Source: Escherichia coli
GTDB lineage: Bacteria; Pseudomonadota; Gammaproteobacteria; Enterobacterales; Enterobacteriaceae
Assembly: GCF_048403405.1 (NCBI RefSeq)
Contig: NZ_CP183129.1
Strand: one strand, 5' to 3'
Length of the DNA stretch: 64,000 bases
Positions 46,140 through 48,335 of this stretch are shown piece by piece. Positions within the stretch are counted from its first letter, which is position 1. Every line of letters begins with the position of its first letter. Under the pieces are notes generated by a model that had not been told where the DNA came from, searched no databases, and was given only the letters and a program-made list of their open reading frames with translations. A program made the translations under genes and the position numbers.

Positions 46140-48335
46140 ATGATTACTCGTATTCCTCGTATTCCTCGTAGTTCTTTCTCTGCAAATATTAATAATACAG
46201 CCCAGACAAATGAACACCAAACCCTGAGTGAATTGTTTTATAAAGAACTCGAGGATAAATTTTCTGGCAAGGAGCTGGCGACGCCTCTATTAAAAAGCTT
46301 CTCAGAGAACTGTAGACAAAATGGTCGTCATATCTTTAGTAACAAGGATTTTGTCATTAAGTTTTCCACGTCCGTCTTACAGACTGATAAAAAAGAAATT
46401 ACGATAATTAATAAAAATGAAAACACGACACTCACTCAAACCATTGCTCCAATATTTGAAGAATACCTGATGGAAATTTTACCTCAACGCTCAGACGCTC
46501 TTGATAAACAAAAATTAAATCTAAAATCAGATAGAAAAGAAAAAGAATTCCCAAGAATTAAACTTAATGGTCAATGTTATTTTCCGGGGCGACCCCAAAA
46601 CCGTATAGTATGCCGACACATTGCTGCACAATATATTAATGATATTTATCAGAATGTTGATTACAAACCCCATCAAGATGATTACTCTTCAGCTGAAAAA
46701 TTTCTCACTCACTTCAACAAAAAATGCAAAAACCAGACTTTGGCGTTGATTTCCAGCCGTCCTGAGGGGCGTTGCGTTGCTGCCTGCGGTGATTTCGGGC
46801 TAGTTATGAAAGCATATTTTGACAAGATGGAATCAAATGGCATCAGTGTTATGGCAGCCATATTATTGGTGGATAACCATGCTTTGACGGTCCGGCTAAG
46901 AATAAAGAACACAATTGAAGGATGTACCCATTACGTGGTTTCGGTTTATGATCCAAATGTAACTAACGATAAAATAAGAATCATGAGCGAAAGTAAAGAG
47001 GATATTAAACACTATTCACTGATGGACTTTATGAATGTAGATTATAGCCTCCTGAAATGGTCAAATGATCATGTTATTAACCAATCTGTTGCAATAATTC
47101 CAGCACTTCCGAAAGAACAGCTATTGATGCTAAAAGGATCTGTGGATGAAATAACCCCTCCATTATCACCTGCAACGATGAATTTGCTCATGGCAATTGG
47201 TCAGAATCACCAACTTACGCAACTGATGATTCAACTCCAGAAAATGCCAGAACTACATAGAACAGAAATGTTGACTGCCTATAATAGTATTAACCTGCCA
47301 GGTTTATATTTGGCTATAAATTATGGTAATGCGGATATCGTTGAGACTATTTTCAATTCATTGTCAGAAACAGGATATGAAAGGTTACTCTCGAAAAAAA
47401 ATCTCATTAATATTGTGGAGGCAAAAGATAAAAATGGTTTTTCTGGATTATTTTTAGCGATATCACGTAAGGATAAAAATGTTGTAACCTCGATTCTGAA
47501 CGCCTTACCTAAACTGGCCGCAACACATCATTTAGATAACGAACAAGTGTATAAATTCCTGAGTGCCAAAAATAGAACGTCCAGCCATGTTTTATACCAT
47601 GTTATGGCGAATGGTGATGCCGACATGCTGAAAATTGTTTTGGACGCGTTACCTTTGTTAATTCGCACATGTCATTTGACTAAAGAACAGGTACTCGATC
47701 TCCTGAAGGCAAAGGATTTTTATGGTTGCCCAGGACTATACCTGGCGATGCAAAATGGACATAGCGATATCGTGAAAGTTATTCTCGAAGCATTACCCTG
47801 TCTGGCCCAGGAAATTAACATTTCAGCTTCCGATATTGTAGATCTTCTGACCGCTAAAAGTCTTGCGCGCGACACGGGTTTGTTTATGGCCATGCAGCGC
47901 GGACATATGAACGTTATTAAGACTATTTTTAACGCATTACCCACTCTGTTTAATACGTTTAAATTCGATAAAAAAAATATGAAGCCCCTCCTCCTGGCAA
48001 ATAATTCTAATGAATATCCCGGTTTGTTTTCAGCGATACAGCATAAACAACAAAACGTTGTAGAGACGGTTTATCTTGCTTTATCTGACCATGCACGCCT
48101 GTTTGGATTTACTGCTGAAGATATTATGGATTTTTGGCAACACAAAGCGCCACAAAAATACTCTGCCTTTGAGTTGGCTTTTGAATTGGATCACCGGGTT
48201 ATTGCTGAATTAATCCTTAATACGATAAATAAGATGGCTGAAAGCTTTGGCTTTACGGATAACCCTCGATACATTGCGGAGAAAAATTATATGGAAGCTT
48301 TACTCAAAAAAGCATCTCCCCATACCGTACGCTAA
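46140..48335 (+). CDS. arpA: Ankyrin-repeat protein ArpA
   Basis: 731 aa, AT-rich; the C-terminal half shows repeated ~33 aa units (..[19 protein letters not shown].., ..[22 protein letters not shown].., ..[22 protein letters not shown]..) typical of ankyrin repeats; 3' end overlaps aceK convergently. Confidence 0.8.

Follow-up and report, generated by a model that had tools for sequence, protein, structure and literature searches.

A horizontally acquired arpA islet as the probable origin of the 32 bp coding overlap between aceK and arpA in Escherichia coli

Introduction

Opposite-strand neighbours with overlapping transcripts have been described as excludons, a class defined by antagonistic regulation and RNase III processing. 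In E. coli K-12 MG1655, ExcludonFinder lists aceK–arpA among 165 convergent excludons that were detected in 50% or more of 58 RNA-seq sets by a criterion that relates RNA-seq coverage to each gene's own mean (PMC12288877). The pair shares with the class the overlap of its transcripts in MG1655 RNA-seq, and was assigned to it from that overlap. In the reference annotation of the same strain, aceK (b4016, 4218596..4220332) and arpA (b4017, 4220301..4222487) have the 32 bp 4220301..4220332 in common, and the coding overlap considered here is real and already known.

The product of arpA is annotated as an 'ankyrin-like regulator' in K-12, and RefSeq names the gene espL4, 'type III secretion system effector EspL4', via homology. 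The ShET2, EspL and OspD3 type III secretion effectors combine a Toxin_15 domain with ankyrin repeats, as arpA does; ArpA/EspL4 is placed among the EspL-type effectors by homology, and its secretion and activity are putative. The gene also provides the 'arpA' marker of the Clermont quadruplex PCR, which scores it only for presence or absence; the papers giving the primer sequences (PMC5322314, PMC4322292, PMC7656184) contain nothing on the overlap or its origin.

Overlaps at the 3′ end of aceK are found elsewhere in the Enterobacterales, with iclR, the repressor of the aceBAK operon itself. They occur in 16 of 77 other species, and measure 4 bp in 13 (loci L047–L058 and L080) and 47 bp in three (L022, L033 and L043). 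In these overlaps, likewise, a non-conserved AceK tail is encoded by downstream DNA, including the antisense of the neighbour's 3′ end, but the partner is iclR rather than the acquired arpA. The aceK and iclR stops are no more than 20 bp apart in six further species among the 77.

The DNA analysed here, referred to as the window, is a stretch of 64,000 nt from an E. coli genome (assembly GCF_048403405.1, contig NZ_CP183129.1), and coordinates are those of the window unless stated otherwise. A first-pass annotation of this DNA had noted that aceK and arpA overlap at their 3′ ends, and had proposed that convergent transcription could couple the expression of arpA with the glyoxylate-shunt operon through interference or antisense RNA.

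The overlapping gene pair

The two genes and their shared bases are as follows (the genes from the list of open reading frames and the sources named).

46140..48335, + strand: arpA (espL4) coding sequence, 731 aa plus stop (Pfam, RefSeq and K-12 arpA, b4017)
48304..50040, − strand: aceK coding sequence, isocitrate dehydrogenase kinase/phosphatase, 578 aa plus stop (Pfam, NCBIfam and PDB)
48304..48335, both strands coding: tail-to-tail overlap of aceK and arpA, 32 bp (open reading frame list, RefSeq and K-12)

By direct reading, arpA ends in SPHTVR followed by a TAA stop at 48333–48335, and the TGA stop of aceK lies at 48304–48306, where it appears as tca on the + strand; the opposite-strand frames share their 3′-terminal coding bases. 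In the RefSeq annotation of a genome with 100% identity, the two genes stop at the same places (espL4 at 1341..3536 on the + strand, aceK at 3505..5241 on the − strand), and they do so in K-12 as well, confirming both the extent and the position of the overlap given in the first-pass annotation. The K-12 pair consists of the same genes with the same 32 bp overlap, identical throughout a 61-mer spanning it (48290..48350). It differs in the length of arpA, 728 aa in K-12 vs 731 aa in the window, the window gene having a 9 bp tandem duplication (two copies of cgtattcct, 46149–46166) near its 5′ end, where K-12 reads MITRIPRSSF. It also differs in the aceA–aceK spacer, which is 48 bp in the window (50041–50088) and 182 bp in K-12. 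Among strains lacking arpA, this spacer is 124 bp long in two and 215 bp long in another, and identity of the window to K-12 falls to 0.34 over 50000–50100; a repetitive extragenic element in the K-12 spacer would presumably account for the difference in length.

Both partners are genuine protein-coding genes. The window AceK matches the Pfam domains AceK_regulatory and AceK_kinase and the NCBIfam equivalog (941.8 bits), and PDB entries 3lc6 and 3eps are near-identical 578-aa chains. ArpA carries the Toxin_15 domain (ShET2 N-terminal; residues 133–382, E = 1.8e-96) followed by ankyrin repeats (Ank_2). The dN/dS ratio is below 1 for both: 0.03–0.06 for aceK (and 0 for iclR), and for arpA 0.16 between the window and K-12, rising to 0.47–0.59 against a divergent allele. 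Synonymous divergence is similar in the two genes (dS 0.07–0.12 for arpA, 0.11–0.15 for aceK), which points to long co-residence rather than a recent arrival of arpA.

Internal deletions and frameshifts are frequent in arpA, and the gene is disrupted in B strains (PMC5435950). A common allele of 524 aa, in which TAYNS is joined to GHMNVINTIF, lacks some 204 residues through an in-frame deletion between similar units of the ankyrin region (window about 47290–47900); it is present in roughly one third of complete E. coli genomes, an estimate based on rows taken at even intervals down the BLAST ranking. A word-indexed search for ArpA homologues returned 20 proteins, nearly all of them E. coli alleles, and no donor was identified among them. 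Two distant homologues (26–28% identity) have similar lengths and C-termini that cannot be aligned.

An insertion junction within the overlap

The features of the junction are listed here.

44999..45823, + strand: iclR coding sequence, the ancestral convergent neighbour of aceK (RefSeq annotation mapped from locus L001)
45831..48323, + strand: AT-rich islet of about 2.49 kb, a 309 bp upstream region plus arpA (junction alignment, GC content, absence in 80 species)
48304..48323, − strand: bases of the overlap that come from the islet; they encode the aceK end Y-G-E-M-L-F and its TGA stop, opposite the arpA codons L-K-K-A-S-P-H
48324..48335, + strand: bases of the overlap that stem from ancestral aceK; they encode the arpA end T-V-R and its TAA stop, opposite the conserved AceK residues F-S-V-R

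In an alignment of arpA-less E. coli, E. albertii and the window, homology on the left continues through the iclR stop and CTTTTTC to 45830. On the right it resumes, by eye, at 48324, with ACCG(T/C/A)ACGCTAAA common to arpA-less E. coli and E. albertii. Immediately left of 48324 no homology to either is present, and AceK reads SVRYGEMLF before its stop in the window vs SVRFV in arpA-less strains. The break between genomes with and without arpA falls within the overlap, at about 48323/48324. Its exact position could lie a few bases further left, since tails of the Klebsiella type likewise have 'YG' following SVR. Between these two points, about 18–20 ancestral bases (GCCTCTGATTTATACGAA, comprising the iclR–aceK spacer and the end of aceK) are replaced by about 2.49 kb.

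The first-pass description of arpA as AT-rich and acquired fits these data. The GC content of the islet is 0.30–0.41 vs 0.52–0.58 in the flanks, and aceK has no arpA beside it in about 25% of E. coli genomes or at the loci of 80 other Enterobacterales species. The islet combines atypical base composition, presence/absence polymorphism with sharp junctions and absence from outgroups, and arpA is its only sizeable open reading frame. As to mobility signatures, the islet has neither an integrase gene nor a tRNA, and no direct or terminal inverted repeats were found at its ends (45831 and 48323); on the lack of a tRNA and of end repeats, an insertion of the site-specific or transposon type was rejected.

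A perfect 7 bp inverted repeat (GGGCAGA ggcaatat TCTGCCC, 45833–45854) lies at the extreme left end of the islet, immediately beyond the stop and T-run of iclR. No T-run follows the repeat on either strand.

A scan of one genome per species covered 80 other Enterobacterales loci (E. albertii and 79 further species), and returned no locus from E. fergusonii, E. marmotae, E. ruysiae or clade I. An arpA homologue was beside aceK in none of the 80, and iclR was the convergent neighbour of aceK in almost all. Three E. coli genomes without arpA, one of them JJ1887, have an aceK of 574 aa that ends in SVRFV, and 16 bp separate its stop from that of the convergent iclR. The RFV end recurs in E. albertii, where the spacer to iclR is 15 bp. 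Given this shared end and spacer, and the absence of arpA from all 80 other species, the arpA-less state is the ancestral one, into which arpA was inserted. In lineages that lack the gene, aceBAK and iclR remain intact. Phylogroups B2 and F are reportedly the ones lacking arpA in the Clermont scheme of 2013; strain JJ1887, which lacks the gene, agrees with this, and an explicit statement of the absence was not found in the phylotyping papers searched.

One locus returned by the scan (L013, contig NZ_AFJI01000113.1, labelled Edwardsiella ictaluri ATCC 33202) has aceK and iclR products with 90% and 91% identity to those of E. coli. AceK is 74–75% identical at the Hafnia, Yersinia and Serratia loci of the same scan, and this contig may be a contaminant or mislabelled.

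Taken from these alignments, the overlap is most probably the scar of a horizontal insertion of the arpA islet, about 2.5 kb long, into the last codons of aceK. The ancestral Escherichia aceK ended in RQRFSVRFV, with its stop 15–16 bp from the stop of iclR. The AT-rich islet, carrying only arpA/espL4, would then have replaced about 18–20 bp, including the last two codons and the stop of aceK, leaving each frame to read across the right junction to the first in-frame stop within the DNA of the other gene. By this route aceK would have gained six codons (YGEMLF) and its TGA from islet DNA, whereas the last three codons of arpA (TVR) and its TAA fall in DNA of the ancestral aceK; the 20 islet bases and 12 ancestral bases make up the 32 that are shared. 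The overlap would since have been kept by descent in the phylogroups that carry arpA. The location of the homology break inside the overlap is what suggests a by-product of islet insertion.

Conservation of the overlap among E. coli genomes

Features within and near the overlap that bear on its conservation are given below.

48306..48311: run of six A residues within the overlap; loss of one A moves the end of the arpA frame to 48397–48399 and extends the overlap to about 95 bp (end of protein P0007; open reading frame 48247..48399)
48315..48334, + strand: site of the Clermont quadruplex primer ArpA1.r (TCTCCCCATACCGTACGCTA), exact match, wholly within the overlap and spanning the junction
48695..48714, − strand: site of primer AceK.f, exact match

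Conservation was assessed in 5426 complete E. coli genomes, using as queries a 1001 bp segment across the junction and the 61-mer 48290..48350. The longer query matched 5425 genomes, with at least 80% of its length covered in 4084. In the remaining 1341 the alignment begins only at query position 527–530, corresponding to window 48326–48329, and extends rightwards. The 61-mer was found in about 3973–3977 genomes and is identical in 3833 of the 5426, that is, in 96% of the genomes carrying arpA, while the flanking DNA differs by 2–3%. This uniformity exceeds what the flanks would predict, and may reflect a dual-coding constraint on the ancestral half of the overlap rather than neutrality. The one-base loss in the A run occurs in only three of the 5426 genomes.

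A divergent arpA allele (locus L086; 87% amino-acid identity) occupies the same position and also overlaps aceK by 32 bp. Its three substitutions in this region (48308, 48312 and 48313) change the AceK tail to YGEIFY and the ArpA tail to LLNKKSPHTVR without altering the length of the overlap, which suggests that the islet-derived half is under no constraint. The question raised at first pass, whether the overlap is conserved in other E. coli, can be answered positively, for both the common and the divergent allele.

The sites of ArpA1.r and AceK.f predict an amplicon of 400 bp (48315..48714). Primer ArpA1.r spans the insertion junction, and this explains its specificity for phylogroups that carry arpA.

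The AceK tail and the ends of the aceK transcript

Beyond the conserved RQRFSVR(Y/F), the AceK tail is hypervariable across genera, consisting of 0 to about 25 unrelated residues. An exchange of tails at this point would have been tolerated because this part of the protein is not conserved in the family.

A 3′ end is also known inside aceK, upstream of the overlap.

49673..49757, − strand: equivalent of the K-12 sRNA AceK-int (b4830), mapped from the K-12 annotation by gene coordinates
49702..49681, inside the aceK coding sequence: terminator-like hairpin (CCGCTCG...CGAGCGG, then CTTTTTAT) at the 3′ end of AceK-int

In K-12, AceK-int is an Hfq-dependent sRNA with a mapped internal 3′ end within aceK (PMC8175672, PMC10687069). 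In BL21(DE3), premature termination was observed within aceK, whose expression is far below that of aceA (PMC5435950), and the place of this termination matches the position of AceK-int in K-12. An Rfam scan of 44800..51500 gave nothing relevant.

At the overlap itself, the predicted RNA structure was not significant against shuffled sequences (z = 0.6). No bidirectional intrinsic terminator was found there, the strict scan making no call, and the only candidate was a weak AU-rich hairpin and U-run on the − strand. This terminator-like hairpin on the aceK strand was considered and rejected, its fold being no better than those of the shuffles. The transcripts of the two genes presumably overlap only for want of room for terminators between them.

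A genomic SELEX study reported a site bound by RNA polymerase holoenzyme with the stationary-phase sigma factor RpoS at K-12 coordinate 4220334, labelled aceK > arpA < iclR (PMC5493296). Depending on the numbering used, this coordinate would lie near the 5′ end of arpA (older MG1655 version) or at the overlap (current version).

Alternative explanations for the overlap

An artefact of sequencing or annotation, with one of the two stops misplaced, has practically no chance of being correct. No point in its favour was found. The 3′ ends are set by stop codons and not by the choice of a start, the RefSeq and K-12 annotations agree on them, and the same 61-mer recurs in 3833 genomes; a frame error that would put the true arpA stop upstream of 48304, the circumstance under which the first-pass claim would have failed, is not present. 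The sole frame variants, the three genomes with a shortened A run, push the arpA stop deeper into aceK, not upstream. It is very unlikely that the order of events was reversed, with arpA ancestral and the RFV end created by its deletion from E. albertii and from E. coli of the B2/F type. Such a history could draw on the lack of mobility signatures flanking the islet and on the presence of a 'YG' tail start in other genera. However, aceK adjoins iclR without arpA in all 80 other species, and the AT-rich composition of arpA marks it as foreign. The RFV end and the spacer of 15–16 bp are also common to E. albertii and arpA-less E. coli, so a loss of arpA would require identical independent deletions.

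Insertion of the islet remains the preferred origin, and the other alternatives concern a possible role of the overlap. A still slimmer likelihood than that of the reversed order attaches to selection for a useful aceK end supplied by the islet, be it a C-terminal tail with a function or, directly beyond the new stop, a hairpin and U-run resembling a terminator (− strand, 48325 to 48279). For the sense strand of aceK, a relaxed scan does report a hairpin of −10 kcal/mol with TTTTTCTC after it, and the region is nearly invariant among genomes with arpA, but the fold does not exceed shuffled sequence and the stricter scan lacks the call. As for the tail, its residues are altered in the divergent allele and hypervariable across genera, and in PDB 4p69 the AceK chain comprises 568 residues and stops at residue 571. 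Somewhat better odds, though still poor ones, can be given to the regulatory reading put forward at first pass, taken here as an excludon, in which arpA and aceBAK are transcribed towards each other through their common 3′ ends and this would cause interference or degradation of double-stranded RNA and make expression of the two mutually antagonistic. It agrees with the overlap of the coding sequences, with the lack of a convincing intrinsic terminator at either stop and with the place of the pair in the MG1655 excludome (PMC12288877). That listing records transcript overlap, and overlapping coding sequences would earn it almost automatically, because coverage is compared with each gene's own mean. 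Against a regulatory role, arpA is missing from about a quarter of E. coli and from all outgroups, carries an internal deletion in about a further third, and reaches a dN/dS of 0.59; lineages without it retain the aceBAK–iclR arrangement. The overlap straddles an insertion junction, both protein tails vary freely in the divergent allele, and premature termination was observed inside aceK, whose expression is far below that of aceA. No arpA expression was seen in the BL21(DE3) study, though arpA is disrupted in that strain (PMC5435950), and a literature search on arpA expression or H-NS silencing gave no usable direct evidence.

The length of the overlap bears on the same question. Following every frame of the local DNA up to the stop it next meets shows that genes fused tail to tail at random in this DNA would overlap by a median of 117 nt; the observed 32 nt falls at the 7th percentile. 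The overlap is no longer than chance gives, which argues against a meaningful role, and is shorter than the usual random fusion.

Meaning of the overlap

As a discovery the overlap carries little weight: the reference annotation already contains it, the overlap of the transcripts has been catalogued, and the presence or absence of arpA is scored by routine phylotyping PCR. Nor is the idea of coupling new, aceK–arpA being already in the published MG1655 excludon catalogue. The transcript overlap in MG1655 (PMC12288877) leaves room for a regulatory side effect. The comparisons made here establish where the junction lies, what the ancestral arrangement was, how variable the AceK tail is and how widely the overlap is conserved in the population, and from them we infer that the overlap itself has no selected function. 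In contrast to a typical excludon, the overlap here is coding sequence that an insertion would have created.

A further suggestion, which we regard as speculative and improbable, is that the islet broke an older convergent arrangement, in which read-through from aceBAK ran antisense into iclR, the gene for the operon's own repressor. It is prompted by the 15–16 bp between the aceK and iclR stops in E. albertii and arpA-less E. coli, and by the overlap of 4 or 47 bp between the two genes in 16 of 77 species. If true, phylogroups with and without arpA would differ in feed-forward control of the glyoxylate shunt, and the aceK–arpA overlap would be a remnant of that rewiring.

What the present analysis adds is an explanation, namely that the overlap straddles the junction and that each gene appears to borrow its stop codon from the DNA of the other. 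The locus would then be a clean case of an acquired gene creating a coding overlap by accident, one that could be tolerated as the C-terminal tail of AceK is evolutionarily free.
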